Assembly (NCBI RefSeq): GCF_003324675.1
Contig: NZ_CP030918.1
Coordinates: 840,001-872,000, forward strand
Length of the DNA: 32,000 nucleotides
Direction of reading: 5' to 3'
Source: Paracoccus suum
Lineage (GTDB): Bacteria; Pseudomonadota; Alphaproteobacteria; Rhodobacterales; Rhodobacteraceae
Shown piece by piece: positions 3,788 to 20,198 of the stretch. Both the position numbers and the translations under genes were made by a program. The notes under the pieces were generated by a model, which was not told the DNA's origin, ran no database searches, and was given only the letters and a program-made list of their open reading frames with translations. Every line of letters begins with the position of its first letter. Position 1 is the stretch's first letter.

Positions 3788-4028
3788 GTCTTCTATATGC
3801 GGCGGACGCAGATAGACGTCAATGCCTAAATGCGTACGACGCAGATGGTCCGCGGGAGCCGCTGCCTTCCGCCCAAGCCGCCACTGCAGCTGTCGAGCGT
3901 CCCGCCCCCTGGGCCGCCCTCATCCGATCGGGGCTAAAGAGGAACCAAGCCATGACGTGGGGACCAAGGTGTCACTGGCGCGGACTGGATGCACTGATGG
4001 TTCGTCATGACAATCTGGATGCCGCCCA

Positions 4029-4705
4029 CGACTGGAAGTCGTCCAGCTTCTCGTAGATGCGGCGGTTGTCGGCTCCGCGCGCGTTGAACGCCTGGATGTG
4101 ATCACCATCACGTTGATACCCGCGTCGGACGAAAAGCTTTCCAGCTCGTGCAGGCGCTTGGAATTGTAGCTGAAGAACCGCGCCTTCTTGCCGTCGTAGC
4201 TTTCGGCGAAATGGTCGGCCGTGATCTGCAGCGACTTGTATACCCCTTCGCGAATGGCGATCGACGGCACCATGATGATGAGCTTCGACCAGCCGTACCG
4301 CTTGTTCATCTCGAAAATCGACTTGATGTAGCAGTAGGTCTTGCCCGTGCCGGTCTCCATCTCGACGTCGAGATGAATGCGGGTCGCGGCCAGCGCGTCG
4401 CGCTTGTAGGTGGCCGCGACGGGCACGCGTTCGCCCCCGGCGTTGAAGGTGGTGAAGTCCGTCAGCGACTTCGAGACGGGCAGGTTTTGGCGCCGCTGGA
4501 CCTTCTGGATGTTCTCCAGGATCTGCACGTCGGTCGGGGCCAGGTCGGCGTTCTTGAAACCCTCCTCGAAGGCGCTGGCCTGTGGCTGGCTGCCGGGGTC
4601 GATACGGTAGGTCAGGCCAGAGGTCATGGGCTGGCCGGCGAAGCAGTCGACGACGTCGTTGACGGCATTGGTCTGATAGGGCTGGACCTTGAACTTCAGC
4701 TTCAT
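4029..4705 (-). pseudogene. res: Type III restriction enzyme Res subunit, N-terminal fragment (frameshifted near 4098, truncated near 4030)
   Basis: [19 protein letters not shown]...[44 protein letters not shown] is the characteristic N-terminus and Walker A of type III Res helicase-nucleases. After ...GINVMVI the track frame turns into low-complexity junk. Shifting one nt restores [23 protein letters not shown]. No DEAH box, helicase-C or nuclease domain follows. Confidence 0.8.
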
Positions 4706-4977: not shown

Positions 4978-5835
4978 TCATGCCGCCGCCCTGCATGCCG
5001 GTTCAAGCCAAGCCCAGATCTCCGCAGTGACCTCCGCGAGCGGCCGTCCCTCGAGAGCCGTGCCATCCGAGTAAGCCCGCCATTGCGTCGTCTTTGTCGG
5101 GTCGGTCGAGAACTCCTCCGACAGACCGACAGGGCAGGCGGCTGGAACAATCGTATCGCGTCGAGCGAAGGTTCCTCTGATCGCAGCCGCGAGGTCGTCC
5201 ATGTCGATGTTGACGGCCTTCGGCAGCGTCCCCAGATCATAGAGATCCTTCATCCGGCTGTTCGCCAAGCCCAGCGCCACCACGGCCTGAAACTTCTCGG
5301 CGATGACCGTTGCCGGTGAATAGGCGCGGATCGATGCGGCTGGAAAGTCGAGCAGGGAGCCGTACTCGATCTCGAATTGCGGATCGGGCAAGGCGTCGCC
5401 GAAGCCGAGGTCCACGGTGATCGGAATGCGCGTGTTACCCAAGCGGGCTTCGGTCCGGAGCCGCATCCCGCCATAGATCTGGTCTTCTCGAATGGCGACG
5501 GCCGTCAGGCTTTCAATGTCATAGACCAGCCCATCCTCGCCATCTATGGCGAGTATCTGGGAGAGGACAGTCTTCAGTTCCGCCTCCTCGTCCGAGCCGA
5601 ACGCCAAGAAGTCGATGTCCCGGGTAAAGCGGCCGGTGTCAGCCGTCCACAAGGTGACGAGCATGCCACCCTTCAAGACGAAGCGGTCGCGATATTCGGA
5701 GACCGACAGCCGGTACACCAGTCGTTCGAGGCCGAAGGCCACCAGCACCACATCGAACAGCTGACCTTCAGCACGGGCAAGGTTCAGCAGACGCTGACGC
5801 ACAGACGCCGCGATATCTTTCGGCTGCTTAGCCAT
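4978..5835 (-). CDS. abiEii: AbiEii/AbiGii-family nucleotidyltransferase toxin (DUF1814 type)
   Basis: 285 aa. The N-terminus SVRQRLLNLARAEGQLFDVVLVAFGLERLVYRLS...FVLKGGMLV...RFTRDIDF is typical of AbiEii toxins. It overlaps the upstream AbiEi gene by 8 nt. Confidence 0.9.
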   Translation of the reverse strand: MAKQPKDIAASVRQRLLNLARAEGQLFDVVLVAFGLERLVYRLSVSEYRDRFVLKGGMLVTLWTADTGRFTRDIDFLAFGSDEEAELKTVLSQILAIDGEDGLVYDIESLTAVAIREDQIYGGMRLRTEARLGNTRIPITVDLGFGDALPDPQFEIEYGSLLDFPAASIRAYSPATVIAEKFQAVVALGLANSRMKDLYDLGTLPKAVNIDMDDLAAAIRGTFARRDTIVPAACPVGLSEEFSTDPTKTTQWRAYSDGTALEGRPLAEVTAEIWAWLEPACRAAA

Positions 5836-6448
5836 TGGATGTCAGCGCCTCCAGATAGGGGCGCATCTGGTTCCACGCGCCGTTCTCGCGAGCGGCTGCA
5901 GCAAGCTGGCCTGCCGTTGCCTTCCTGGCGCTTAGCGCGGCCTTCATCGCTTCAATGGCAACCGACCGGTCTACAAGTTTCGGGTTCCGAAATGCGTCGG
6001 CAATCGTCTTGGCTATGGAGTAGACTCGGACCTCCACGTCCCCGCTGCGATGGATCTCGGTGCCATTGGTCAGGTAGGGCTCACGGAAGCGCACGATGCG
6101 GATGCGTGGATATTCGATCTTCGGTGCCCAGTCCTTGGCGCCGATGGCGATCCACACCCGGCGTGGAAGTTGGTCGGTCAGCTGATGAAAGGATAGCGCC
6201 GAGGTCAGGCAGATGACGGCCTTGGGTGCGAGTTTGGCGATCTCGATGAGCCCAGCATGAAGGTCGGGCTCGCTGTCGGGCAGCTGATACAGTCCCCGCC
6301 CGATCCGCACCACCACGCCATCTGCCACCGCCCTCGCGATGGTGGTTCCGCTCACGCCGATGGACGCCAGATCCCTTGAACGGGCTGGCGCATGAACTTC
6401 CATGTAGTCGATCATGTGGGCGCGCTGGCCCTGATCCGTCGCAAGCAT
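5828..6448 (-). CDS. abiEi: AbiEi-family antitoxin/transcriptional regulator (type IV TA)
   Basis: The N-terminal wHTH ...SRDLASIGVSGTTIARAVADGVVVRIGRGLYQLPD and a C-terminal antitoxin domain are present, immediately upstream of AbiEii. The start is uncertain: the ORF is open to 6556, with ATGs at 6448 and 6415. Confidence 0.85.
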   Translation of the reverse strand: MLATDQGQRAHMIDYMEVHAPARSRDLASIGVSGTTIARAVADGVVVRIGRGLYQLPDSEPDLHAGLIEIAKLAPKAVICLTSALSFHQLTDQLPRRVWIAIGAKDWAPKIEYPRIRIVRFREPYLTNGTEIHRSGDVEVRVYSIAKTIADAFRNPKLVDRSVAIEAMKAALSARKATAGQLAAAARENGAWNQMRPYLEALTSNG

Positions 6449-6449
6449 G

Positions 6450-6496
6450 GTTACAAAACCGCGGACAAAAATGCATCCTGTCCTAGGTTTTGTAAC
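6450..6496. promoter_or_regulatory. Perfect 11-bp inverted repeat (GTTACAAAACC, 25 bp spacer, GGTTTTGTAAC); candidate AbiEi operator
   Basis: The arms at 6450-6460 and 6486-6496 are exact reverse complements. They lie directly at or upstream of the candidate abiEi start. Confidence 0.55.
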
Positions 6497-6678
6497 ATTC
6501 CGCTCGGCTTCAGGCAACCTGCGCTGGTGCGCACCCCGCGGCGTCATCAGATTCAATCACCGCAGATTGTGCGGAGATTAGACCCACTATTCTCCGCCCG
6601 ACTGCTCCATAGGCGGATTTTGCCGTTCGATGACCCTTGGAACGGATGGACTACGGATCACGAGAAGCGGCCGAACCG

Positions 6679-8347: not shown

Positions 8348-10480
8348 TTGCGCTGCGGAGCCCGTTTGAACCAGCTTGTCGAATTCAACCAAGACCTTGT
8401 TGCCGAGCTGCGGGAAGAGTGTGCGGAAACTGACCTGCCGCTCGAGGACGTCGCATTCGATCGGCTCTGCGAAACTCTGGAAGCCGAAGGCGAGATCGAG
8501 ACGTCCGACAGATGTGCTTATCGAGGGGCTGCATCCGGAAAGTCCCTTCGGATCGATGGTCATGGGGGTGACCCCAGAGAAACCGATGGCATCCTCAGCG
8601 TCATTGTCTGCGAAGTCTTCGACGACGAACAGCCGCCGACTTTGAACGCAGCCGACGCCAAAAAGCACTTTGGCCACTTGATCAATTTCGTCGCAGCCGT
8701 ACGGCGGCGGGAGTTTCGGGACCAACTGCACATCGAGTCACCCGAATTCGGCGTTGCCATGATGATCGCCGAGTCATGGTCATCCGTGACCAAAGTCAAA
8801 TTGATCCTTGTCACGAACGCGATCTACAGCGCCCGGACAGATGCCGTCGTTGCTGGAAGCATTTCCGACATCCCCGTGACCTATAACATCTGGGATTTGA
8901 CCCGTCTGCACAGGGTTGAAACCACGGGCTCCAAGGAAAAGATCGTCGTCAAGTTTGCCGAAGACTTCGGCGGAGGCCTTCCAGCCCTTCGAGCTTCTGG
9001 TCCGGAGTCAGAACTGCCATCCTATCTAGCTGTCATCCGTGGCAAACAGCTGGCTGACATTTATGACAAGTGGGGCGCGCGAATGCTGGAGTCAAACATC
9101 CGCAGTTTCATTCAGGCGCGCCGAAAGTCGGTCAACGAAGGGATCCGGGACACCATCAAGGGCGAACCCGAGATGTTCTTCAGCTACAACAACGGGCTGT
9201 CCGCGACCGCAGACGCCGTCGACATCGAGATGGACGGGGCCGGTGCCCACATCCTTTCGGCGAAAAACCTGCAGATCGTCAACGGTGGCCAGACGACCGC
9301 TTCGCTGCATGCAGCATTGAAGCACAGCCCTGAGAACCTGGACCGCGTCCATGTGCAGATCAAACTGACGGTGGTACCTTCCGAAAGTTCCGAGCAAGTC
9401 GTGCCGAACATCTCGAAGTACGCGAACAGCCAAAACAAGGTCAGTGTCGCCGATTTTTTCTCGAACCACCCATTCCACATGCGGATGGAGGGATACTCGC
9501 GCCGTGTTTCCGCGCCTCCAGCGCCGGGCATGAACAGGCAGACCAAATGGTTCTATGAAAGGGCGCGGGGACAGTACCAAGTGGAGCGGGCGAAGCTGGG
9601 AGGCGCCGATCGGAAGCGTTTCGATTCCGAACATCCGAAGGCCCAGCTCTTCGCCAAGACGGACCTTGCCAAGGTCGAACTTTCTTTCCGGATGAGACCG
9701 GACACCGTGAGCAAGGGGGCGCAGAAGAATTTCGCAGCCTTCGCATCGGAGATAGGAGAAGCGTGGGCGGCCAGTGACAGAAAGTATGACGAGACCTGGT
9801 TCAAACGCCTCATCGCCAAGGTGATCATATTCCGCGCCCTCGAGAAGGCTGTCCCACGACAGGAATGGTACCCGGGCGGATACAGGGCCAACATCGTAAC
9901 CTACGGTATTGCCAAGTTGGCCCATGACGTCGAAAAGGGCGGGAAGGTGCTGGATCTCGATCGGGTCTGGAATGACCAGTCCGTTCCGGAAGCGTTGATG
10001 AAAACTTTCCTCATTGCCTGCGAGGCCGCGGCCGACGTGATCACCACTACGGACAGTGGCATCCGCAATATCTCAGAATGGGCGAAGAAACAGGGATGCT
10101 GGTCTTCTGTCGCACGTGCCGAGGTTGCCTACGATGGCGGACTTGAGGACTTCCTCATAGAGCCTCAGGACGCCAGAGCGGCCGAACGTGACGGTCGCCG
10201 TGAAGAAGCGATGATTTCCGGGATTGAGGCACAGTCAAAGGTGATTGCGCTTGGCAGCGCCTTCTGGGGAAGGTTGCGTGAGTGGACCTCTGCTAGCCCT
10301 TCATTCTCAATGAAGAACGACGGCATCTTGAAGGCCTGCAGCCAGCAGGAGCGCCGCTTGCCGTCCGAGCGCCAATGCATTCTCGCCGTTGAAATCCTCG
10401 GACGTGCCCGCGAAGAGGGCTATGTCGACGATGAGGAGACACCCAGAATCAGGATATCCGGCAAAGTGCGGTCCCATTGA
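8348..10480 (+). CDS. AIPR-family (abortive infection phage resistance) protein
   Basis: About 700 aa. The core ...MLESNIRSFIQARRKSVNEGIRDTIKGEPEMFFSYNNGLSATADAV...LQIVNGGQTTASL is the AIPR signature as I know it. There is no ATG start. TTG at 8348 or, better, TTG at 8366 (GGAG 5 nt upstream) are the candidates. Confidence 0.88.
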   Translation: MRCGARLNQLVEFNQDLVAELREECAETDLPLEDVAFDRLCETLEAEGEIETSDRCAYRGAASGKSLRIDGHGGDPRETDGILSVIVCEVFDDEQPPTLNAADAKKHFGHLINFVAAVRRREFRDQLHIESPEFGVAMMIAESWSSVTKVKLILVTNAIYSARTDAVVAGSISDIPVTYNIWDLTRLHRVETTGSKEKIVVKFAEDFGGGLPALRASGPESELPSYLAVIRGKQLADIYDKWGARMLESNIRSFIQARRKSVNEGIRDTIKGEPEMFFSYNNGLSATADAVDIEMDGAGAHILSAKNLQIVNGGQTTASLHAALKHSPENLDRVHVQIKLTVVPSESSEQVVPNISKYANSQNKVSVADFFSNHPFHMRMEGYSRRVSAPPAPGMNRQTKWFYERARGQYQVERAKLGGADRKRFDSEHPKAQLFAKTDLAKVELSFRMRPDTVSKGAQKNFAAFASEIGEAWAASDRKYDETWFKRLIAKVIIFRALEKAVPRQEWYPGGYRANIVTYGIAKLAHDVEKGGKVLDLDRVWNDQSVPEALMKTFLIACEAAADVITTTDSGIRNISEWAKKQGCWSSVARAEVAYDGGLEDFLIEPQDARAAERDGRREEAMISGIEAQSKVIALGSAFWGRLREWTSASPSFSMKNDGILKACSQQERRLPSERQCILAVEILGRAREEGYVDDEETPRIRISGKVRSH

Positions 10481-10611
10481 GGTCGGGCTGCAGCGGCACC
10501 GTTGTGTGAATCACGCCGTTGCCTTCGCGTGCACAAAGGGCGACGCGCTCACACCCGTCCCCGGCCGCCCTTTGAACCTTCGCTCGACTATTACAGCGGT
10601 GGAAGCTTCAT

Positions 10612-11052
10612 TCAGTGGACCCGCCGCCAACCGGTCGTCAGCCTGATCCTGACGGGGGCGTCATCCTCTGAGGCGTCGGAGCCGCCGCCTATCGGGATCA
10701 CCCTGATTTTGTAACGCGCCGCCCCGTCCGCCTTCGAAATCTCGAAGGTATCGCGCGCGTTGGCCATTTCCTCCCTGAGGAACTTGGTCAGATAGGTGAT
10801 CCGATACTCGTTTCGTGTGCCTTTTGGCGCATGCATTCGGTTGTTGTAGTATACGAAGCGAAGGCGCAGAATCTGACCACTAGGCGTTTCGCAGTCGATC
10901 CATGCCGAAGGGTTCAAGGTTGCCGGATCAAGCTTGGGCAAGAAGGCAAGAAGCTCGCCATCACCTTTCGGCACCAGAATGCCCCCCATGTGGCCACCTG
11001 TCGTTCCGACGTCATTGGCACTGAGTGTCTTGATGAAGGTTTTGATCGTCAT
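10612..11052 (-). CDS. Stand-alone EcoRII N-terminal-like (B3/DNA-binding pseudobarrel) domain protein (146 aa)
   Basis: FIKTLSANDVGTTGGHMGGILVPK...RFVYYNN....GTRNEYRITYL parallels EcoRII YIKRLSANDTGATGGHQVGLYIP...AIYYNS...GKTRNEKRIT. The real start is the ATG at 11052, in an ATGA overlap with the SNF2 stop. The upstream part of the 177-aa track ORF is Arg/Pro junk. Confidence 0.75.
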   Translation of the reverse strand: MTIKTFIKTLSANDVGTTGGHMGGILVPKGDGELLAFLPKLDPATLNPSAWIDCETPSGQILRLRFVYYNNRMHAPKGTRNEYRITYLTKFLREEMANARDTFEISKADGAARYKIRVIPIGGGSDASEDDAPVRIRLTTGWRRVH

Positions 11053-12869
11053 GGCTTTACCGGGCTGATGGCGAGGGCGCGCCTGATGTCCTGTGCGTCC
11101 CGACTGGAAACCGGGACGGTTTCGTTGGCAAGGTCGCTCTTCCAAGCGGAGCGTTCGATCATCACCTCCTCGACCGTGTCCTTATAGAAGAGGCGGTAGA
11201 CCGTGACTGGTTCGGTTTGGCCACGTCGATGCGCCCTCGCGCTCGCCTGAGCTTCGAGGGCAGGGTTCCAGACGGGGGTGAAATGGATCACGACGGTTGC
11301 TGCAGTGATGTTCAGGCCCGCCCCTGCCGCCTTCGGATTCAGGATCAGGCATGCGGCACCATCGTGGGCTGAGAAATCATCGATGATGGTCTGGCGGTCC
11401 TCCTGCGGGGTCGATCCGTTGATCGCTCCCCAATACGTTTCGGCAAAGTCTTTGCAGGCAGTCCGGATCAAGTCACCGATCCGATTGAACAGGGCAAAGA
11501 CGATGACCTTCCGGCCATTCGCAAATGCCTCCCGAAGGAGTTCGACCGTTCGTTCGAGCTTCGGCGTAAGCAGAGGTAGGTCCTCACGGGTAACGATCTT
11601 GGCGTCGTCCCAATCGACCAGCGCCGCATCCGGAGTCCTGAGCCAAGGATGCGCACAGACCAGCTGAAGCTGCAGGGTCGCGACGAGGGGGCCCGCGACC
11701 GGATACTTTTCCAGCGTAGCCTCGCGGACGTTGTCGTAATGCCGGGCCAGACCATCATCGAGTTCCAACGGCAGATCGATGTCGATGCGATCCGGAAGAT
11801 CGGCGGCGACATCACGCACTCGCCTTTTCAGGATGATTGGATCGGTCAAGCCGCCCAGCGCCTGTCCGGCCTCAAGCGTGTCGGGGAACGCGACTTCGAA
11901 GACGGTTTTGTCCCCGAGCATGCCCGGGATTGCGAAATCGGCCAACGACCACAGATCCATCAGGGTATTCTCGACCGGGGTGCCGGTCATCGGTATCGAC
12001 TTGCGGCGAGGGATCGTCACAATTGCCTGCCGACGGTTGGAGTGGGGGTTCTTGATGGCCTGAGCCTCGTCGCAGATCACCCAAGCCCATTCAAAGGACG
12101 AGAAGATCGAGATGTCGTTCACCATCGTCTCGTAGGTGGTGATCACTACAGATGCGACCTGTAGGTCACGATAGATTCCGGCACGATGGGCTCCCCTGTG
12201 AACCATCAGCGAGAGGCTTGGCGCGAACTTGCCGAACTCGCGCACCCAGTTTGCGATGAGGCTGGTCGGACAAACGATCAGGGCCGGTGCGGCGTTCTCC
12301 GGTGGATCCATAAGCAGGAGTGCGATGATCTGAAGCGTCTTGCCGAGACCCATCTCGTCCGCAAGGATCAAACCGCCAGTCCTATTGACCGTTTCCCACA
12401 TCCATCGGACGCCCCGTGCCTGGTAGGGGAAGAGGTCGGCGTGTAGGCCGGGGATGTCGATCTTGGGCGGCAATTCCTCGGCGGTGATCTTGCCCGAGTG
12501 CAAGAGATCGGGTGCGGCCTCGATTTCGAGGCCCTCGGGTGGTGTTCGCAGCAGCCTGATCGCCGTGGCGTACGAAATGTCGTCCGGGGCTTCGTCACCA
12601 AGGCATTTTGCGACCAAGCCCGGAGCGTCCTTGGGTAAGGGGCGTAGGATTGCGCCGTCCGCAATCCAAGCATGCGAAATCGACGGCGCCTCGATCAGTC
12701 GAACTTCCCCACGAACCATTCGCTTGCCGCCCAGCGCCACGGACATCTTCCCGGATACCCGGGAGAGGATCGCAACCGGTTCAACAACCCGCTCAGAGAC
12801 GGAAAATCCTTCAGGAACCTTTGCGAGCAGCGCGTCGAAATCTCGAGGCAGGGCAGCAAGTTTGCTCAT
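11049..12869 (-). CDS. SNF2-family (SF2) helicase/translocase
   Basis: LFPYQARGVRWMW, LADEMGLGKTLQ (motif I), DEAQAIKN (II), MTGTPVEN (III) and LNITAATVVIHFTPVWNPALEAQASARAHRRGQ (V/VI) are all present. Confidence 0.92.
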   Translation of the reverse strand: MSKLAALPRDFDALLAKVPEGFSVSERVVEPVAILSRVSGKMSVALGGKRMVRGEVRLIEAPSISHAWIADGAILRPLPKDAPGLVAKCLGDEAPDDISYATAIRLLRTPPEGLEIEAAPDLLHSGKITAEELPPKIDIPGLHADLFPYQARGVRWMWETVNRTGGLILADEMGLGKTLQIIALLLMDPPENAAPALIVCPTSLIANWVREFGKFAPSLSLMVHRGAHRAGIYRDLQVASVVITTYETMVNDISIFSSFEWAWVICDEAQAIKNPHSNRRQAIVTIPRRKSIPMTGTPVENTLMDLWSLADFAIPGMLGDKTVFEVAFPDTLEAGQALGGLTDPIILKRRVRDVAADLPDRIDIDLPLELDDGLARHYDNVREATLEKYPVAGPLVATLQLQLVCAHPWLRTPDAALVDWDDAKIVTREDLPLLTPKLERTVELLREAFANGRKVIVFALFNRIGDLIRTACKDFAETYWGAINGSTPQEDRQTIIDDFSAHDGAACLILNPKAAGAGLNITAATVVIHFTPVWNPALEAQASARAHRRGQTEPVTVYRLFYKDTVEEVMIERSAWKSDLANETVPVSSRDAQDIRRALAISPVKP

Positions 12870-13702
12870 CGGACGGCCGCCTCGTCCACGTGCGGTGACA
12901 TGAGCGCCCGCAATTCCGAAATGGAGTAGGGTATCGGGCGTCTCGTATGCACGGCGCGGTGGCAGTTGGGACAGAGCGGTGCCAGATCGATCGCCGGATT
13001 GTATGCGCGGGGCACAGCCAGAAGGGACAAGGCCTCGAGATGGTGGACTTCAATGATGCTCCCGGCCTCGCCGTATGCCGACCTCGGCTCGATGCCGCAG
13101 CATGCGCATTTCTCGCCGTGCAGCCGGATACAGAGCAGGCGGTTTCGAGGGTTCCGTTCGCGTCGCCGGATTGTCGAAACTCGAATCGCGCCCTCATGAG
13201 CGTGCGCACCGTCTTTTTCCTCCTCCTCGATAACGTCATAGCCTATAAGTTCCGCCATTGCGGCCATCAACGGCACGATCACGTCCCGGCATACCTTGGC
13301 GACTGCCTCGTCCTGATCGTCTGGCAACCCCCGGGCTGTTGCTGTGATCTTGAAAGCTCCGGAATCCACAGTCCAATCATCCCGGCCTTGGCCAAAAAGT
13401 TGGAGATCCACTGCTGGACTGATCGACGCCACCAAGGCGCGTGCCAACCCGACGTCCTCTGCGTCTGCGGCCTGTATCTGGCGGACGATCGCTCCCGCAA
13501 ACTTCCCGAAGCCGAGCGCTACCCGATATCCCCGGATCCCGTAGGGACGCAGCTCTGCAATCGGGCCGTGGCGCTCGTCCAGATCGGCGAACCAGAGGCG
13601 CAGGCCGGTCCTGGTGCCGCTTTGGTCGACCGCTATACCGATCGCGGCGCCGGTTCCCGCCTCCAGCTCCCTTTGGATGATGTCCTGCCGATCGGAGATC
13701 AT
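12866..13702 (-). CDS. HNH endonuclease with an unassigned ~170-aa N-terminal domain
   Basis: The C-terminus RRRERNPRNRLLCIRLHGEKCACCGIEP...IIEVHHLEAL...NPAIDLAPLCPNCHRAVH is a canonical HNH/zinc-finger nuclease. It has an ATGA overlap with SNF2 and a 1-nt spacer to the GHKL stop. Confidence 0.85.
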   Translation of the reverse strand: MISDRQDIIQRELEAGTGAAIGIAVDQSGTRTGLRLWFADLDERHGPIAELRPYGIRGYRVALGFGKFAGAIVRQIQAADAEDVGLARALVASISPAVDLQLFGQGRDDWTVDSGAFKITATARGLPDDQDEAVAKVCRDVIVPLMAAMAELIGYDVIEEEEKDGAHAHEGAIRVSTIRRRERNPRNRLLCIRLHGEKCACCGIEPRSAYGEAGSIIEVHHLEALSLLAVPRAYNPAIDLAPLCPNCHRAVHTRRPIPYSISELRALMSPHVDEAAVR

Positions 13703-13703
13703 C

Positions 13704-15332
13704 TTATTCGTCGTCGTCCTCGGTCAGTTCCGCGGGTTCAGGATCCGGCATGTACCGCAGCAGCTTGCGGAGGTTGGCCGAAATCTCTTCGCGGATATCC
13801 TCGAAGACGGGTTCGAGCTCGGGATCGGTGTTGTTCTGCTCGGCCATTGCGAAAGCGTAGAGCAGGAGGTCCATCCCCTCGACCGCGTAGCCGTTGGCGG
13901 CGGCACGCTGATAGATCTTCTGATAGAAGTCATGGTGCTTGTTGAGCTGAACGCCCGGCACATGGTCCGCGCTTCCCGCGCTGCGGTAAGCGGGCTCCCA
14001 GAGATGGCCATTTGTGATCGTTGTAACCGCTTCGACGTGAATGCTGTCAGGGCTGACGAAATTCTGGACTGGCGCCTTGATCCTGATCTTCGGGCCGCGG
14101 TTGTTGCTGATTTCGGCAGTTTGGGTGCGTACGTCCGCAGCATTCACTTGGGGTTTCGTTGTGTTTGGCGTGCCCGCGATATTCTTGTTCGCGCTGCTGT
14201 GGTCGACGGTCTTCTTTTGGTTGGCGTCGTCTCGGCTTTCGCGGCGATAGCGAGCACCAGCTTCGCGATAGACCGGTTGAAGCAGTTTGCGCAGGCCGTC
14301 CTCAAGATCCGGATGGAACAGGATCCGTGACTTCTTCACATCGATTCGGAATGCCTCGTCCAACTGGTGGCCGAAGTCGAACTCGATTCTGAGCAGCGAG
14401 GTGTGCGGTTCAGGCGCTCCGAACACATCCATCCAGCCGCCGTCTTGGATCAGGCGGCCCTCGCGATAGACATAGAAGCCTTGCGCCCTGTTCGAGATCT
14501 TCGCGAACTCGGCCTCTTCTTCTTTGCCCATGTCACGGCGGTGCGGAAGGATCCACGCCTTCATTTCGGCAACTTCTTCGCTCCCGTCGAAGAGTTCGAC
14601 GACCACCTTTTGTTTGTTCGGGGCAAGTACTTGCTCGGACCGTCCGGGATAGAACGGGTTCCATGGTTTCACCGGAGTTCCGTTGATCCGGATCACTACG
14701 TTCCGTTCCCGGCTGTCATTTTCATCAAGGAATCTATGGAAGACGAGGGAGAGGTGCTTGCTAAGGGCCTCGGACATCCGCTTGACAGCGGCCTGTTCCT
14801 TTGTGCCTGGCGTGTATTCCTTCGAAAGCAACCGGTCGCAGTTTTCCCAAATGACAAGCGTACCCGTCGGACCGCAGTACTCGTCGAACATCTCGTTCTG
14901 ATCCGCCGTTACCGGCTCAGCCAACATTTCCCACACGTTACGCTGTTCGACGTGCTCTAGGTCCCATGTAAGCTTAGCCAAGGGTTGGTCCTCAGACCGC
15001 CGAGAGATCACGCTGTAGCGCTTGCAAACCGAGCTGGAGGCGGTCTTGAGGCCCAAGCCGAATTTTCCAAGGCTCTTTGCGTCGGGGCGCCTGTCCGCAC
15101 CGTACCGCATGGCGTTCCGGACTTGCTCTTGGTTCATCCCGTGACCATCGTCGCCGAAATAGACGACCTTCCGTCCGTCATGCAGGAGCTGGATTTCGAT
15201 GTTGATGTTCTCTGCTCCTGCCGCGATCGAGTTGTCGATGATGTCCGCAGCTGCGGTCCTGACGTTGTAACCGGTGTCGCGCAGGCCATAAATCAGCCGC
15301 GAGGCGTTCGGGTCGTTGATAAGGTCGCTCAT
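13704..15332 (-). CDS. MORC-like GHKL (HATPase_c_3-type) ATPase
   Basis: Bergerat-fold motifs are readable: AADIIDNSIAAGA (N box), DDGHGM (G1), GKFGLGLK (G2). About 300 aa of uncharacterised C-terminus follow. It has an ATGA overlap with vsr. Confidence 0.88.
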   Translation of the reverse strand: MSDLINDPNASRLIYGLRDTGYNVRTAAADIIDNSIAAGAENINIEIQLLHDGRKVVYFGDDGHGMNQEQVRNAMRYGADRRPDAKSLGKFGLGLKTASSSVCKRYSVISRRSEDQPLAKLTWDLEHVEQRNVWEMLAEPVTADQNEMFDEYCGPTGTLVIWENCDRLLSKEYTPGTKEQAAVKRMSEALSKHLSLVFHRFLDENDSRERNVVIRINGTPVKPWNPFYPGRSEQVLAPNKQKVVVELFDGSEEVAEMKAWILPHRRDMGKEEEAEFAKISNRAQGFYVYREGRLIQDGGWMDVFGAPEPHTSLLRIEFDFGHQLDEAFRIDVKKSRILFHPDLEDGLRKLLQPVYREAGARYRRESRDDANQKKTVDHSSANKNIAGTPNTTKPQVNAADVRTQTAEISNNRGPKIRIKAPVQNFVSPDSIHVEAVTTITNGHLWEPAYRSAGSADHVPGVQLNKHHDFYQKIYQRAAANGYAVEGMDLLLYAFAMAEQNNTDPELEPVFEDIREEISANLRKLLRYMPDPEPAELTEDDDE

Positions 15333-15865
15333 CTTCGTGTTTCCTGCTCGCCGGATGAAATTCCGGACCTCGTGCGCCTGTTGGTCGACAGGCCATCCGA
15401 TGACAATTCTGCATTTGTTTCAATGCCCTGCAGCCATGCGGCGATAATACTGATCAAATTGTCCACCTGAAAGGACCGCGTCGCACATTCCCAGACGACA
15501 AGAACCCGCCAGCCGTAGCCCAGCAGAGCCTCGATTGCGCGTGTGTCCCGCTCCCGGTTGGCTTCGATCTTTGCGGACCAGAATTCTGGCCGGGTCTTGG
15601 GAATACGAAAATGCTTGCAGTCAGCGTGACCATGCCAAAAGCAACCGTTCACGAAGATAGCGCACTTGTGCTTCCGCATGACGATGTCCGGACAGCCCGG
15701 GAGGGAACGGACGTGCAACCTGAACCGGTAGCCGATGGCGTGGAGAGCCTTGCGCAGGACCAGTTCCGGCTTGGTATCCGCCGAACGGACGCGCGCCATC
15801 ATCTGTGATCTGGTAAGGGGCGCCTTCTTCTCAGCCAACACGTTCCCTTCGCGACCGGAGGGCAA
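15329..15865 (-). CDS. vsr: Very-short-patch repair endonuclease
   Basis: [24 protein letters not shown]...[26 protein letters not shown]...[16 protein letters not shown]...[11 protein letters not shown] matches E. coli Vsr almost motif for motif. The start is non-ATG (TTG 15865, GTG 15841 or TTG 15838) and overlaps the end of the methyltransferase gene. Confidence 0.92.
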
Positions 15866-16931
15866 CCATGTTAGTCAACCATGGAGCCATCGCTTCGGCG
15901 ATCGCAACCGAAACAGGCGCCGCGACGGCGTTGCCGAACTGCCGATATGCTTGGGTGTCACTTACCGGGATCTTCCAGGGATCGTTGGAGCCGGGACGGT
16001 CGAAACCCATAAGGCGCGCGCATTCCCGCGGGGTCAGGCGGCGCGGGTTCTCTCCAGGCTGCTTGACCAAGATTTCAGACCCATCCTTATGATACCGAGC
16101 GCTGAGTGTGCGGGCCACGTTTTCGGGGCCGACCAGCCCGAAACCGAAGCCATTGCCTGCCCTGCGATGCTTCTCGGCATACCGCTGGAGGTACGACCAG
16201 AGGCCATCAGTAAGCGTGTAACGGTCGTTGACCTTGCCGAAGCTACCGGTCGTGTAGCGCCCGTCTGCGGCCTCCGACCCGTCCTCGGGGTGGAGGATCG
16301 ATGCGAGGGTAGGGTTGGGCCCCGGCGGAACGAACACATCATCGAAGGAGAAGGTCGTCTTGTAGTCCCTGCGGAACCCAGAAATGAAAATTCGCTCACG
16401 ATGCTGCGGCACCCAAGAACGGGCATCTATCACGCGGTAATCAACCTCGTACCCGAGTTCGTCCAAGGCATGCAGGATGACCCGCATCGTGTTGCCCTTG
16501 TCATGGCTCAACAGATTCTTGACGTTCTCGAGCAAGAAGGCCCGGGGCTGGTGATGGCGCAGGATCCGGACGACGTCGAAGAACAGGGTCCCCTGGGTCT
16601 CGTCCGCGAACCCATGAGCTCGACCGAGCGAGTTCTTCTTGCTGACGCCAGCCAAAGAGAACGGCTGGCAGGGAAATCCGGCCAGAAGCAGATCATGATC
16701 AGGAATGTCTGACGCGGCAACCTGCGTGATGTCACCAGCGATTTCATGGTCGCTTCCAAAGTTAGCGCGATAGGTCTCCTGAGAGTACTTGTTCATCTCG
16801 CAGGTGAAGACGCATTGTCCACCAATTGCGTCGAAGCCACGCCGGAGGCCCCCGATTCCCGCGAACAAATCGATGAACTTGAAGGGTGCTTCGGGGTGTT
16901 CCAAGAATGTTTCCTGCACGCTTGTCGCCAC
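15831..16931 (-). CDS. DNA (cytosine-5)-methyltransferase
   Basis: [10 protein letters not shown] (motif I), [11 protein letters not shown] (IV), FLLENVKNL (VI), QHRERIF (VIII) and [11 protein letters not shown] (X) are present. The GTG start at 16931 has AGGA 4 nt upstream. Target specificity cannot be read from the sequence. Confidence 0.95.
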
Positions 16932-17611
16932 AATATCCTGGGCCGTGGGATCAAGCCCTCTGCTGATGCTATGCTAGGCAGCCTTCGCTGTCGATGGTTT
17001 GAGCGTAGCCGCCGGTCCGCGATGATGATGTCCTATCATTGGTCCATTAACAGATCGGTTTGAAGACAGCCGCGTCGTCGGTTCGGAGTTGCCCGACCCA
17101 CCGAGACAGGCCCGGGTCCGGGTCGAACAACAGATCGTGTGGCAAAGCCGTCATGCCCACGGCCTGATTTTCGGCATTGGAGCCGTCACTTCGACCTCCC
17201 GCAGCATCCCGCCCACGAGCGGCCCCTCGCGGATTCAGCCCAGCGCTTGCCACCAGTCGTCATAGCCGCGCCGGGCCGCTTCGATCTGCTGCGGATGGGG
17301 GGAGAACGTGACTGGGCAGGCCAGGATGTCGAAGATCTTCCACGTGGTACGCGCGCCCACACCGACACAGGCGTAGATCCGCGCCACCATCAAGCCGGGC
17401 CACGAGGCGGGGACTGGAATAAAGGCGGAAGGTGGAACTGGGGCTGGCAGTGGCGTTCCGGGCAGAACAAACGAGTAGTTGGTGCAAGATACACGTCACT
17501 GATCCAATGCCTTTGTGGGAAACGCTGAAACTGAACACGGATAACGGTATGAGCGCACATCAAGCCTGCGGTGGCGCCCTACACTTGTGTTGAGGCTTTG
17601 CACCCCCTCGG

Positions 17612-18949
17612 ATGCGCGCTATGAACAACACCAAGGCATATCTGATCAGGACGCGTCTCTTCATGTTTTCACGACTGCGGCTAGAAAACTTCAAGGCTTG
17701 GTTGGACCCCGAGGACATTACTTTGCGTCCACTTACGATGCTCCTCGGCACCAACTCATCCGGAAAGTCGTCTCTTATCCAGAGCCTGCTATTACTCAAG
17801 CAGACCGCGCGTTCGCCCGACCGGACTGTTCATCTCAATCTTGGTGGAGATGAGCTAAACGATCTTTTCAATTTTGGGTCCTTCGAAGACGTCCTGAACC
17901 ATAGCGCTGAGTCTCCGCGTCTATTTTCGATAGAATTCGACTTCGATAATCGTGGCGCAAGCAGAATTCATAAGGGCAGTTTTGGGTGCTCTTACGGCCA
18001 GACTTCGTCTGGCAGCGTCGCTGTTCAGGCTCTCACTCTCAAAGCTGAGGGACGTCAGTTCAAAGCCATTCGCCGAGAGAAAGGCGCTTTCTCGATCCTC
18101 GTAGATGATGAGCAACTGCCTCGGGCAAAGGGCCGCAATTACGCGCCTGAGCGCTCGATTGCCTTTTCGGCTGATGCGATAGCTGTACTCGATAAAGAAG
18201 GACAACTGCTTGAGGACCTCAGCCTAGCAATCCGGCAGGAACTAGATCGCACCATCTATCTTGGGCCGTTGCGTCGTAAGCCGGAACGCGATTACCCTTG
18301 GAATAAAAGCAAGCCAGGCGACGTGGGCAGCGATGGACGTGGCGCAGTAGACGCCCTCTTGGCAAGTACCCTATTGCGCGGCGATGAACAGAATTACGTT
18401 GTTGATGGCGTCTCTCGCTGGCTGCGTCATATGGGAGTTGCAGACAAGCTTGAGGTCAGACAGCAGGGGCGCTCAAATCGCTATGAATTAATTGTGCATC
18501 GTGAAGGCGTTGCATGCAATCTGCGGGATGTGGGTATCGGCGTATCACAGGTATTGCCGGTTTTGGTTGTGTCCTACTTTGCCCCTAAGGGTAGTACGAT
18601 CTTACTTGAAGAACCCGAGATTCACCTGCATCCGCTTGCTCAATCAGTTTTGGCTGAGCTTTTCGTCGACGTCAGTATGGAGCGCGGGGTTCAGTTTATT
18701 GTTGAAACGCATTCTGAGCATCTCTTCAGACGCATGCAGACACTAATTGCCAAGGAAAACACTTCGGCGACTGATGTGGCAATGTATTTCGTGAAGCGAA
18801 ACGGGCGTTCTGCGAAACTATGTACCCTCGAAATTGATGATTTTGGTCGTGTGAAAAACTGGCCTGACGGCTTTTTTGGCGACGCGCTCGGAGAGACTCG
18901 TGAACAAGCACGACTCATGTTTGAGCGGCAGAAGACACTTCAGCAATGA
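17612..18949 (+). CDS. AAA/ABC-type ATPase (AAA_15/21-like with a DUF3696-like C-terminus)
   Basis: LRLENFKAW...LLGTNSSGKSSL (Walker A), ILLEEPEIHLHP (Walker B), VETHSEHLF (H-loop) and the C-terminal ...DDFGRVKNWPDGFFGD. The true start may be the ATG at 17663 (MFSRLRLENFKAW). Confidence 0.85.
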   Translation: MRAMNNTKAYLIRTRLFMFSRLRLENFKAWLDPEDITLRPLTMLLGTNSSGKSSLIQSLLLLKQTARSPDRTVHLNLGGDELNDLFNFGSFEDVLNHSAESPRLFSIEFDFDNRGASRIHKGSFGCSYGQTSSGSVAVQALTLKAEGRQFKAIRREKGAFSILVDDEQLPRAKGRNYAPERSIAFSADAIAVLDKEGQLLEDLSLAIRQELDRTIYLGPLRRKPERDYPWNKSKPGDVGSDGRGAVDALLASTLLRGDEQNYVVDGVSRWLRHMGVADKLEVRQQGRSNRYELIVHREGVACNLRDVGIGVSQVLPVLVVSYFAPKGSTILLEEPEIHLHPLAQSVLAELFVDVSMERGVQFIVETHSEHLFRRMQTLIAKENTSATDVAMYFVKRNGRSAKLCTLEIDDFGRVKNWPDGFFGDALGETREQARLMFERQKTLQQ

Positions 18950-19476
18950 AAGAGCGCTATGTCGTTGATACCAACGTCTTGATTGCAGCAAGTGCAGCTG
19001 ACCCAGTGCACCCATCTGACATTGCCGCAACGCCGACTGATCCGGTATTGCGCCAGGCTGTTTGGGCTTGGTTGGACGAGTTTGAACGGGGAAACTGTCG
19101 TCTTGTGTTGGACTCAGAAAATCGCATTTGGAATGAGTACAACAATAAGCTGAGACATACTGATTTCGGCATTCAGGTCGTAATATCAAAGTGGAGCAAG
19201 TGCGCGGTCGACAACGTTGCGGTGGATTATGACGAGCACGGACATGGCACTTTGCCGGCAATGCTGGAGCCCGTCATCCATGACCTAGCAGATCGGAAGA
19301 TCGTTGCAGCTGCGCTGGCATCCTATGTAGATTTTGGTGAAGGGTGTATAGCGTTTGCTGGTGACACCGATTGGCATGACTGGGAGGAGGCCCTTCTGGC
19401 ACAGAACGTTGACCTCGAACCGATTATCGAGGCTTGGTCGCGCGCGAAGCATATAGAGAAACAAGAGAGAGTGTAG
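18946..19476 (+). CDS. PIN-like domain nuclease (176 aa)
   Basis: YVVDTNVLIAAS (first acidic residue), LVLDSENRIWNEY, DLADRKIVAAAL and the GDTDW acidic positions fit a PIN fold. It has an ATGA overlap with the ATPase stop. Confidence 0.65.
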   Translation: MKERYVVDTNVLIAASAADPVHPSDIAATPTDPVLRQAVWAWLDEFERGNCRLVLDSENRIWNEYNNKLRHTDFGIQVVISKWSKCAVDNVAVDYDEHGHGTLPAMLEPVIHDLADRKIVAAALASYVDFGEGCIAFAGDTDWHDWEEALLAQNVDLEPIIEAWSRAKHIEKQERV

Positions 19477-19484
19477 GAAGCCTG

Positions 19485-20198
19485 ATGCAAAGCTTCTTTC
19501 GCTTTCCTTCCACGCCTCATCTTGCTTGGCTGAGTCGCCTTGCTGTTCCACGCGAGGATAAAGTGCTTTGTCGCGAAGATGCCGCAAGTCTGCTATCGGG
19601 CGAAGTGGTTGTCGAGGAGAAGCTTGATGGTGCCAACATTGGACTATCTCTAGCCGAAGACGGTTCTCTCCAGGTTCAAAATCGCGGGCAATATTTGATC
19701 GCGCCATTTGTAGGGCAATTCGTAAACGTGCCCGAATGGCTTTCGCAGCATGGTGAGGATATCCGTGATCGTCTTGATGGATCGCTTATAATCTTTGGTG
19801 AGTGGTGTGCTGCACGGCACTCAATTAGTTATGACCGCCTGCCTGATTGGTTTGTAATGTTCGATGTCTATGATCGGGCGATTGCACGTTTCTGGAGTAC
19901 TGATCGACGAAACGCTCTCGCTTCTGCGGCCAACCTAGTGACTGTGCCAACCTTGCTGCGAGGGAAAACAAATTTGGCTCAGTTGGAAGAGATAATGGAT
20001 AAACGGCTTAGCCGATATGCGCTTGAGCCGATGGAAGGTTTAGTTGTTCGTCGAGAGAGCGCTCTGTGGTGTGAGAGGCGCGCCAAGCTTGTACGTCCAG
20101 ACTTCACTCAGGAGATTACGGAGCATTGGAGTCGGCACAGTATCAAGTGGAATCGAGTAGATTGGTCGGTCCGTTCGGACCCTAACTCTGCCACGTAA
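19485..20198 (+). CDS. ATP-dependent RNA ligase family protein (Rnl2/RNA_ligase-type nucleotidyltransferase)
   Basis: FPSTPHLAWLS N-terminus, EEKLDGANIG (motif I KxDG), IIFGEW (III), FVMFDVYD (IV) and EGLVVRRE...AKLVRPDF (V). The ATG at 19485 has AGGAAG 4 nt upstream and lies 8 nt after the PIN stop. The track ORF start at 19434 overlaps the PIN gene. Confidence 0.85.
   Translation: MQSFFRFPSTPHLAWLSRLAVPREDKVLCREDAASLLSGEVVVEEKLDGANIGLSLAEDGSLQVQNRGQYLIAPFVGQFVNVPEWLSQHGEDIRDRLDGSLIIFGEWCAARHSISYDRLPDWFVMFDVYDRAIARFWSTDRRNALASAANLVTVPTLLRGKTNLAQLEEIMDKRLSRYALEPMEGLVVRRESALWCERRAKLVRPDFTQEITEHWSRHSIKWNRVDWSVRSDPNSAT

Follow-up and report, generated by a model that had tools for sequence, protein, structure and literature searches.

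The window, as we call the whole 32,000-nucleotide (nt) stretch of the Paracoccus suum genome analysed here (contig NZ_CP030918.1, positions 840,001 to 872,000; coordinates below follow the numbering of the window, with strands as given there), carries on its minus strand six closely packed genes that encode a candidate restriction-like system. Read in the direction of transcription, with the E-values of the domain matches in brackets, these are dcm, for a C5 cytosine DNA methyltransferase of the Dcm/M.EcoRII type (15831-16931; PF00145, DNA_methylase, 3.5e-82); vsr, for a very-short-patch repair T:G mismatch endonuclease (15329-15865; PF03852, 4.2e-29); a prokaryotic MORC-type GHKL ATPase homologous to MzaB (13704-15332; HATPase_c_3, 8.6e-27); an HNH (beta-beta-alpha-Me) nuclease (12866-13702; PF01844, 1e-3, together with an invariant motif); a SNF2-family ATPase, predicted to be a double-stranded DNA (dsDNA) translocase (11049-12869; SNF2-rel_dom, 6.4e-56, and Helicase_C, 1.4e-16); and a stand-alone EcoRII-N/B3-like DNA-binding protein of 146 amino acids (aa), here the B3 protein (10612-11052; EcoRII-N, PF09217, 1.1e-15). 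Convergent with this operon, on the plus strand, lies a gene for an AIPR-family protein homologous to MzaE (8348-10480; PF10592, 2.2e-98, and AIPR_N, 1.4e-33). MzaB and MzaE belong to Mza (MzaABCDE), an anti-phage system reportedly described by Gao et al. in 2020.

An initial annotation of this DNA had described six tightly packed minus-strand open reading frames (ORFs) joined by ATGA overlaps and a TAAgATG junction, and all of these, when re-read from the sequence, fall at the same coordinates. ATGA overlaps connect the B3 and SNF2 genes (11052-11049), the SNF2 and HNH genes (12869-12866) and the MORC gene and vsr (15332-15329), the MORC and HNH genes meet at TAA-g-ATG (13706-13700), and the dcm stop codon, TGA at 15833-15831, lies inside vsr. 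The domain assignments made at that time are likewise borne out, with strong Pfam matches for five of the proteins and a sub-threshold match for the HNH protein, the motif of which is nevertheless invariant. The vsr ORF begins with TTG, but the true start is probably an in-frame GTG at 15841, which agrees better with the homologue in L001, a related locus described below. The B3 gene, read from ATG 11052, yields a protein of 146 aa, and because its homologues measure 141-148 aa we take this start to be the right one; a longer ORF from TTG 11145 is unlikely. Scans for terminators and promoters returned nothing above chance except one well-placed promoter-like site, TCGACA and TAGCAT separated by 17 nt (16966-16994, minus strand), about 35 nt upstream of the dcm start. 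It is the sole sigma-70-like match in 10300-17700, where 1.9 are expected by chance, so that by count it is not significant and its position alone suggests a promoter.

The wider distribution of these genes was followed from the HNH protein, whose homologues were aligned and used for a profile search of one genome per species. This gave 80 loci (L001-L080), in which partner genes were found by tblastn with the window proteins; since the census is anchored on the HNH gene, it shows the companions of that gene and not how frequent the MORC or B3 genes are elsewhere. The loci span the Alpha-, Beta- and Gammaproteobacteria, the Verrucomicrobiota, the actinomycete Gordonia and a Marinimicrobia metagenome-assembled genome (MAG), with Rhodobacter capsulatus DSM 1710 (L010) and Roseinatronobacter bogoriensis DSM 18756 (L003) among the cultured carriers, and the matches to the HNH profile, about 85 among 185,579 species genomes, are sporadic and cross-phylum. 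SNF2 accompanies the HNH gene in all 80 loci, the MORC-type ATPase in 79 and the B3 protein in 78, and wherever these genes are present the order MORC-HNH-SNF2-B3 is constant, on one strand, with spacers of 0-30 nt. Recurrence of one gene order with such tight spacing in about 80 species puts the arrangement far outside what chance could produce. A lack of co-occurrence outside this genome had been named beforehand as a possible refutation of the system; the genes do co-occur, in about 80 species of several phyla, and the catalytic motifs of all the enzymes of the cassette are conserved across the loci.

The methylase gene behaves differently from this core. A Dcm homologue is found in 75/80 loci, at most 3.9 kb from the core, and lies upstream on the same strand in 45, downstream on the opposite strand in 19, upstream on the opposite strand in six and downstream on the same strand in five. 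All five loci without Dcm are cut off upstream or degraded, and where both flanks could be examined Dcm is there in 75 of 75. That dcm has stayed close in four combinations of position and strand points to selection for linkage rather than to shared descent. Vsr is present in 69/80 loci, frequently on the opposite strand or at the far side of the core, and of the 11 that lack it at least six retain Dcm and an intact core. Because the order of the core is fixed and the placement of dcm varies, the conserved unit is a four-gene core with a movable dcm-vsr module and not a fixed six-gene operon. The earlier picture of one six-gene unit therefore needs redrawing: the six genes are indeed packed together in the window, but the core numbers four, dcm-vsr can move, and the convergent AIPR gene belongs to the unit too. 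All six genes also occur on a 19-kb circular Pseudomonas putida plasmid record (L082, NZ_CP043577.1), where RefSeq gives them generic names ('ATP-binding protein', 'HNH endonuclease', 'DEAD/DEAH box helicase', 'EcoRII N-terminal effector-binding domain-containing protein'). On this record, of a small non-mobilizable plasmid, dcm is divergent and followed by vsr, MORC, HNH, SNF2 and B3, and the cassette adjoins an integrase-domain gene; the record may represent an excised island.

Both the methylase and the B3 protein point to CCWGG as the DNA site with which the cassette deals. Over residues 12-366, the variable region included, the methylase shares 51% identity with E. coli K-12 Dcm; it matches NCBIfam PRK10458 with 430 bits and PADLOC DrmMII at 1.4e-130, and its PCQ and ENV motifs are invariant in 74 loci. 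CCWGG is its probable target. The B3 protein matches the structure of EcoRII-N bound to DNA (PDB 3hqf, 1.5e-9) and is also a homologue of 1na6. In EcoRII-N the bases are contacted by N28, H36, Q37, Y85, R94, E96 and R98, and binding is abolished by 5-methylcytosine (5mC) on the inner C of either strand, with which Y85 has been modelled to clash (Golovenko et al. 2009, PMC2770665). In EcoRII numbering, N28, H36, Y85, R94, E96 and R98 show no variation among the 77-78 loci where they could be aligned; the last three correspond to R80, E82 and R84 of the window protein. The position of Q37, the residue that in EcoRII reads the central A of CCWGG (PMC2770665), holds Gln in 65 loci and Met in 12, among them the window (B3 residue 22). 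The homologues of the B3 protein are all stand-alone proteins of 141-148 aa among the matches listed, and no Rosetta-stone fusion with SNF2, HNH or MORC was found among the best 120 homologues. We regard the B3 protein as the probable reader of unmethylated CCWGG, judging by its conserved contacts.

A possible trace of this specificity is found in the composition of the loci. Sites were counted in the 80 loci and the window, 81 sequences in all, against a maximal-order Markov expectation, and CCWGG is depleted to an observed/expected ratio of 0.66, with 98% of the sequences below 1. Among the controls CCSGG stands at 0.97 and three others at 0.84-0.97, and the deamination products CTWGG/CCWAG are slightly enriched (1.10). 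The window itself has 60 CCWGG sites where dinucleotide shuffles lead one to expect 80.5 +/- 8.1, and 140 CCSGG sites against 134. This depletion fits CCWGG as the site that is both methylated and restricted.

Vsr scores 151.8 bits with TIGR00632, above the cut-off, and is 41% identical to E. coli Vsr. The residue aligned with E. coli His64 is Asn in the window (FVNGCFWH) and His in most members (FVHGCFWH); the Asn variant also appears in a handful of other loci.

The GHKL protein consists of a GHKL plus S5 module followed by a C-terminal region. Its GHKL motifs are present as motif I DNS (N34), motif II DDGHGM, motif III GKFGLGLKT and motif IV GTLV, conserved in 76-79 loci, and the S5 motif GhXhhpXXRhl, which Iyer, Abhiman and Aravind (2008; PMC2292703) defined as MORC-specific, is found as GFYVYREGRLI (residues 285-295) and is conserved across the loci. 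In a profile comparison with the PDB, human MORC2 is the best match (4.8e-8; MutL 3.9e-5), and a Foldseek search with the model of the GHKL plus S5 module puts MORC3, MORC2, MORC4 and SMCHD1 at the top (1.6e-14 to 1e-12; MutL 6e-11), so that the fold matches to MORC proteins outrank those to MutL, Hsp90 and GyrB. The structure model is of moderate quality (mean predicted local distance difference test, pLDDT, of 60), and in the C-terminal region, residues 364-542, it falls below 50 and is not interpretable. With all three marks of the family found, the protein can be classed, on its motifs and modelled fold, as a true prokaryotic MORC in the sense of Iyer et al. (2008). It is also homologous to MzaB (PADLOC 2.2e-46), at a score below the 850-bit cut-off of NCBIfam (195.7 bits). 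Motif I reads ADIIDNS, with Asp30 where MutL and MORC2 carry the catalytic Glu, and this Asp is invariant in the roughly 77 members examined. The initial annotation had called all catalytic motifs intact, which holds in that the motifs are conserved across loci and needs qualifying at two residues, the Asp for Glu in GHKL motif I and the Asn for His64 in Vsr.

The HNH protein scores 19.6 bits with its Pfam model (1e-3), below the cut-off of 21.4, but its motif, CxxC...HH...CxxCH...H, is clear, with C199, C202, H220, H221, C244, C247, H248 and H252 invariant. Its N-terminal domain (residues 1-155), modelled at a pLDDT of about 90, has no significant fold match in the PDB (best E 9.5e-3); a weak likeness to the C-terminal DNA-binding domain of T4 MotA, with a template-modelling (TM) score of 0.48 normalised to the target, serves as a lead only. 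This domain is seen only at the N-terminus of proteins of 260-285 aa, in 62 representative clusters among 1.84 billion proteins, and is probably a system-specific adaptor that docks the nuclease onto the ATPases. In the SNF2 protein the motifs DEMGLGKT, DEAQ, TGTPVEN and QASARAHRRGQ are conserved in 76-78 loci. Its nearest PADLOC defence models are ZorD (1.2e-107), DpdE (4.1e-84) and DrmD (1e-40), to which the helicase core alone aligns, and it has an extra N-terminal region of about 140 aa without domain assignment.

The AIPR protein is homologous to MzaE over its full length (PADLOC 2.9e-75; NCBIfam 321.6 bits, below the 1050-bit cut-off). An AIPR gene is found in 17/80 loci, and in 13 of them it lies convergent and directly past the B3 gene, as in the window. 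The locus L001, from a Rhodobacter sp. MAG (JAYRKT010000004.1), aligns with the window by blastn in a single alignment of 8647 bp and 92% identity, which covers window 8365-16997 and ends close to the promoter-like site; on either side of it no alignment was found, the flanks of L001 being unrelated to those of the window. Therefore AIPR and the six genes move as one block of 8.6 kb. The gene list from which the analysis started had omitted AIPR, which travels with the six genes and recurs in 17 loci, and which on these grounds can be counted as part of the unit, as a seventh, accessory component in this clade. In 33 loci from clades without AIPR, a protein of 545-740 aa is encoded after the B3 gene on the same strand (for example L031:13057-15276, L032:13068-14705 and L065:13063-15225). 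It combines helix-hairpin-helix (RNA polymerase alpha-CTD-like) and sigma-70 region-4-like segments, shows weak matches of 15-17 bits to the sigma region of MzaA, and may be a regulatory or DNA-binding accessory subunit. Complete EcoRII-type enzymes (EcoRII-C, PF09019, 1e-61 to 1e-66) adjoin dcm-vsr beside the cassette in six loci (L016:13220-14419, minus strand; L007:6033-7235; L080:16510-17757; also L022, L059 and L066), so that there a type IIE system and the ATP-dependent cassette have one methylase neighbourhood in common. The presence of these enzymes beside dcm-vsr also speaks for CCWGG as the target of the methylase.

We propose, with moderate confidence, a model in which two modules make up the cassette, which would act in defence as a restriction-like system that depends on ATP and is sensitive to methylation. 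In the dcm-vsr module, the Dcm/M.EcoRII-type methylase would mark CCWGG in the host DNA and Vsr would repair the T:G mismatches that arise from deamination of 5mC, limiting the mutational cost of the mark. The MORC-HNH-SNF2-B3 module, packed and probably translationally coupled, would likely act as one complex. The order of events that we infer begins with the B3 protein, which would bind CCWGG only if it is unmethylated and would thereby recruit or license the SNF2 dsDNA translocase. The MORC protein, dimerising on ATP, would clamp or loop the DNA and couple recognition of the site to the HNH nuclease, which would then cut, its private N-terminal domain probably serving as adaptor to the ATPases. 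In the clade of the window the MzaE-like AIPR protein would be added as a seventh, accessory component, possibly a back-up effector. The outline of this scheme, with m5C as the mark of self, Vsr as a limit on its cost, a B3 reader and ATPases that act with HNH, had been sketched from the letters of this DNA, and the invariant base contacts, the likeness to Dcm, the depletion of CCWGG and the co-occurrence of the genes all appear to back it. The setting in a defence island and the precedents of CglI/NgoAVII, Mza and the 2008 prediction, all taken up below, speak for the model as well.

Several observations weigh against the model. The specificity for the central base may differ in the window and the 11 other loci in which the residue aligned with Gln37 is Met. 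The depletion of CCWGG, counted in host loci only, could arise from deamination of 5mC alone. ATP turnover by the MORC protein may be slow or regulatory, because the position of the catalytic base holds Asp, not Glu, throughout the family. The MORC family, with more than 6,600 clusters, is much larger than that of the HNH protein (about 1,050) or the B3 protein (about 520), and the census is conditional on HNH. Since Mza has been reported to work in E. coli with no obvious methylase to match it, MORC-type systems may by analogy operate without methylation as a gate. Finally, in the six loci where dcm-vsr has an EcoRII nuclease of its own beside it, the methylase could be that of the type II enzyme and the cassette a mere neighbour.

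Carried through to all loci, this last point becomes a different account of the cassette, as two independent neighbours: an orphan or type II (EcoRII-type) dcm-vsr pair and a methylation-independent, Mza-like defence of MORC, SNF2, HNH, B3 and AIPR. Binding by the B3 protein would then be general or sequence-preferring, the trigger would be a phage protein, DNA ends or replication intermediates, and the outcome could be abortive infection via AIPR. Such an account would accommodate the EcoRII-C nuclease of those six loci, the variable position and strand of dcm-vsr, which is not always co-transcribed with the core, the homology of MORC and AIPR to MzaB and MzaE, the protection that Mza gave E. 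coli even against hydroxymethylated and glucosylated T4, and the change of accessory genes from clade to clade (AIPR in 17 loci, the helix-hairpin-helix/sigma-region-4 protein in 33). We nevertheless consider it unlikely, since every one of the 75 loci with both flanks examinable has Dcm no more than 4 kb away, despite repeated rearrangement, dcm overlaps vsr and vsr shares an ATGA with the MORC gene in the window, and the B3 residues that read CCWGG are invariant, Y85 included, beside a methylase of the matching CCWGG type. That overlap of vsr with the MORC gene could also be taken as a sign of DNA repair or epigenetic maintenance, the MORC protein taking the role of MutL, which in E. coli stimulates Vsr, and the SNF2, HNH and B3 proteins dealing with damage from deamination or with chromosomal sites of the host that lack methylation; an interaction of MutL with Vsr is reported as established in E. 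coli (PMC2715241), and Iyer et al. (2008; PMC2292703) remark on the parallel between MORC and MutL-Vsr. The mobility of the block, which has other flanks in L001, and the occurrence of the genes on a plasmid record would suit such a role or that of an addiction module that stabilises a mobile element. A non-defence function of either kind seems improbable to us: Vsr is missing from 11 loci, at least six of them with Dcm and core intact, and where present it is frequently encoded on the other strand or beyond the far end of the core; the surroundings of the cassette form a defence island; a sporadic spread across phyla such as that of the cassette is what one expects of defence genes rather than repair genes; and the association with AIPR points to phage resistance. 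A type IV-like, modification-dependent nuclease directed at foreign DNA that contains 5mC is suggested by the automatic name that JGI gives to homologues of the HNH protein, '5-methylcytosine-specific restriction protein A' (McrA-like), and by a weak PADLOC mREase_IV match (E 0.0088). We reject this McrA-like reading, which has very little probability indeed, as the likeness goes no further than the generic HNH motif, the fold search with the N-terminal domain gave nothing McrA- or SRA-like, 5mC blocks and does not promote binding by EcoRII-N, and a nuclease that depends on 5mC would turn against its own host if linked this closely to, and transcribed together with, a methylase that makes 5mC.

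The methylation-sensitive two-module system that we favour has a clear precursor in the literature. Iyer, Abhiman and Aravind (2008; Biol Direct 3:8, PMC2292703) described operons in which a MORC gene is joined by genes for a SWI2/SNF2 helicase, for nucleases of the HNH or EcoRII-like kind, for a DNA-binding protein of the VP1/RAV (B3) type, and for cytosine methylases and Vsr, named AIPR in a figure legend, predicted a role in restriction-modification (R-M) for them and proposed DNA looping between recognition and cleavage sites. The gene content of their SWI2/SNF2 group equals that of the cassette, and Erythrobacter and Roseovarius, which appear abbreviated in the legend, are both among our loci (L050 and L031). 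The system is thus not undescribed, as had been claimed for it, and that claim was overstated. The 2008 work was a comparative-genomics prediction, without a name, a defined core, a specificity or an experiment; new here are the fixed four-gene core, the movable dcm-vsr module, the invariant CCWGG-reading residues, the depletion of CCWGG, the alternative accessory genes and the private N-terminal domain of the HNH protein. No name for the cassette and no experimental test of it were found in the literature searched, outside which most subscription journals lay, so that this is no proof of absence. An existing named system of the same composition, which it had been stated would refute the claim of novelty, was likewise not found in PADLOC-DB v2, NCBIfam or the literature searched; PADLOC-DB v2 and NCBIfam match just generic pieces of the cassette and hold no model for the HNH or B3 protein as part of a named system.

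Among named systems Mza is the one whose components recur. It protects E. coli against phage, including hydroxymethylated/glucosylated T4, without an obvious cognate methylase (bioRxiv 10.1101/2022.06.16.496414). The homology to MzaB extends over the GHKL plus S5 module and that to MzaE over the full length, the logic of a GHKL ATPase, a superfamily 2 (SF2) motor, a nuclease and AIPR runs parallel, and MzaA belongs to the sigma-70 family, as related loci encode a protein with a sigma-70 region-4-like segment. The cassette differs in its SNF2 motor, HNH nuclease and B3 reader, which stand in the places corresponding to the other Mza components, and in its tight linkage to dcm-vsr. The PADLOC scan covered the six operon proteins and eight flanking ORFs, the NCBIfam scan the six operon proteins, and neither returned a match to MzaA, MzaC (the DEAD-Z1 motor) or MzaD. 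With these three absent and the MzaB and MzaE scores 4-fold and 3-fold under the 850- and 1050-bit cut-offs, membership in Mza was rejected. DISARM, Zorya and Dpd were rejected as well, the SNF2 and methylase matches being to generic cores; DrmA (the DUF1998-associated helicase), DrmB, DrmC (PLD), DrmE, ZorA, ZorB, ZorC and the Dpd partner genes were all missing from the six operon and eight flanking ORFs. The initial annotation had found no fit with type I-IV R-M, BREX, DISARM or Dnd, and this stands.

Neither the homology to MzaB and MzaE nor the parallel with CglI/NgoAVII had been noticed in the initial annotation; the latter, the methyltransferase of which is of the C5 type, can by analogy be regarded as the closest biochemically characterised counterpart of the proposed mechanism. 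CglI/NgoAVII combines a methyltransferase, a B3-like reader, a separate SF2-family ATPase and a nuclease that is not of the PD-(D/E)XK type, and its cleavage needs extensive ATP hydrolysis triggered by the site-bound reader (Zaremba et al. 2014, PMC4267653; Tamulaitiene et al. 2014, PMC4267654). There, however, the reader is fused to a PLD nuclease in the R-protein, the motor is of the DEAD family, the target is GCCGC, there is no GHKL/MORC subunit, Vsr or AIPR, and homology to the window proteins is not shown beyond the B3 fold; no PLD domain or Z1-type helicase was matched in the cassette proteins, which places the cassette outside CglI/NgoAVII. EcoRII has a homologous reader domain with the same base contacts, and a Dcm-type methylase goes with both. 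It needs no ATP, whereas in the cassette a separate HNH protein, acting with two ATPases, would do the cutting; of the two domains of a type IIE enzyme of this kind, the B3 protein has EcoRII-N (with Met at Q37 in the window) and lacks the EcoRII-C PD-(D/E)XK domain in the same protein. On the eukaryotic side, MORC2, MORC3, MORC4 and SMCHD1 offer the closest folds to the modelled GHKL plus S5 module and have the S5 motif in common with it. Unlike them, the window protein lacks CW, coiled-coil and chromo-like domains, shares only 12-18% identity, carries Asp for the motif I Glu and sits in an operon with a nuclease.

Somewhat more boldly, and as a tentative view to which we would give rather less credence than to the model itself, the cassette may constitute a distinct and widespread class of ATP-dependent restriction, in which a free EcoRII-N/B3 protein senses that CCWGG is unmethylated and licenses two ATPases, a SNF2 motor and a MORC clamp, to bring in an HNH nuclease. 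The cassette would then be the first bacterial system for the biochemistry of a true MORC, and would preserve in living form a prototype of the tools that eukaryotes combine, namely 5mC methylase, SNF2 remodeller, MORC and B3 domain. If this is true, a restriction class absent by name from the catalogues of defence systems would be added to them, and a tractable bacterial MORC, a relative of the MORC proteins of animals and plants, would become available with defined partners and a defined DNA signal, allowing clamping, looping and coupling to a remodeller to be tested with four small proteins. The link that was proposed in 2008 between R-M operons and eukaryotic MORC/SNF2/5mC silencing would likewise gain an experimental model. 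On this model dcm-plus E. coli K-12, whose own Dcm methylates CCWGG, should tolerate the core, whereas for dcm-minus strains, and for phage that have been grown on them, the core should prove toxic or restrictive.

The surroundings of the operon consist of further mobile and defence genes. The left end of the window carries a tyrosine integrase (328-2031, minus strand; PF00589, 2.3e-9), and GC content is about 0.51-0.62 up to about 20.5 kb (0.66 at 7-8 kb) and 0.61-0.69 thereafter, where housekeeping genes begin (CobW, amidohydrolase, ABC permease). Given the integrase and this GC profile, the defence genes sit on an integrated island; a tRNA scan of the window for an integration site found no tRNA gene. 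By its predicted content the island is a defence island, with the integrase, AbiE, a type III restriction fragment and a HEC-03-like candidate. The AbiEi antitoxin and the AbiEii nucleotidyltransferase toxin occupy 4978-6556 on the minus strand (PF13338, 3.5e-9; PF08843, 4.4e-45). The neighbouring type III system had already been recognised as a remnant, and the ORF concerned (3920-4705, minus strand; PADLOC REase_III, 1.4e-58) covers just the N-terminal ~180 of 989 model positions. Directly upstream of the operon and divergent from it, on the plus strand, lies the HEC-03-like candidate unit (17612-20198), which comprises an AAA_15/AAA_21 ATPase with DUF3696 (PADLOC HEC-03B, 4.3e-93), an overlapping protein of 176 aa (weak HEC-03A match, 3.9e-6) and an overlapping RNA ligase family protein (PF09414, 1e-35), and which occupies the lowest-GC stretch of the window (0.51-0.52).

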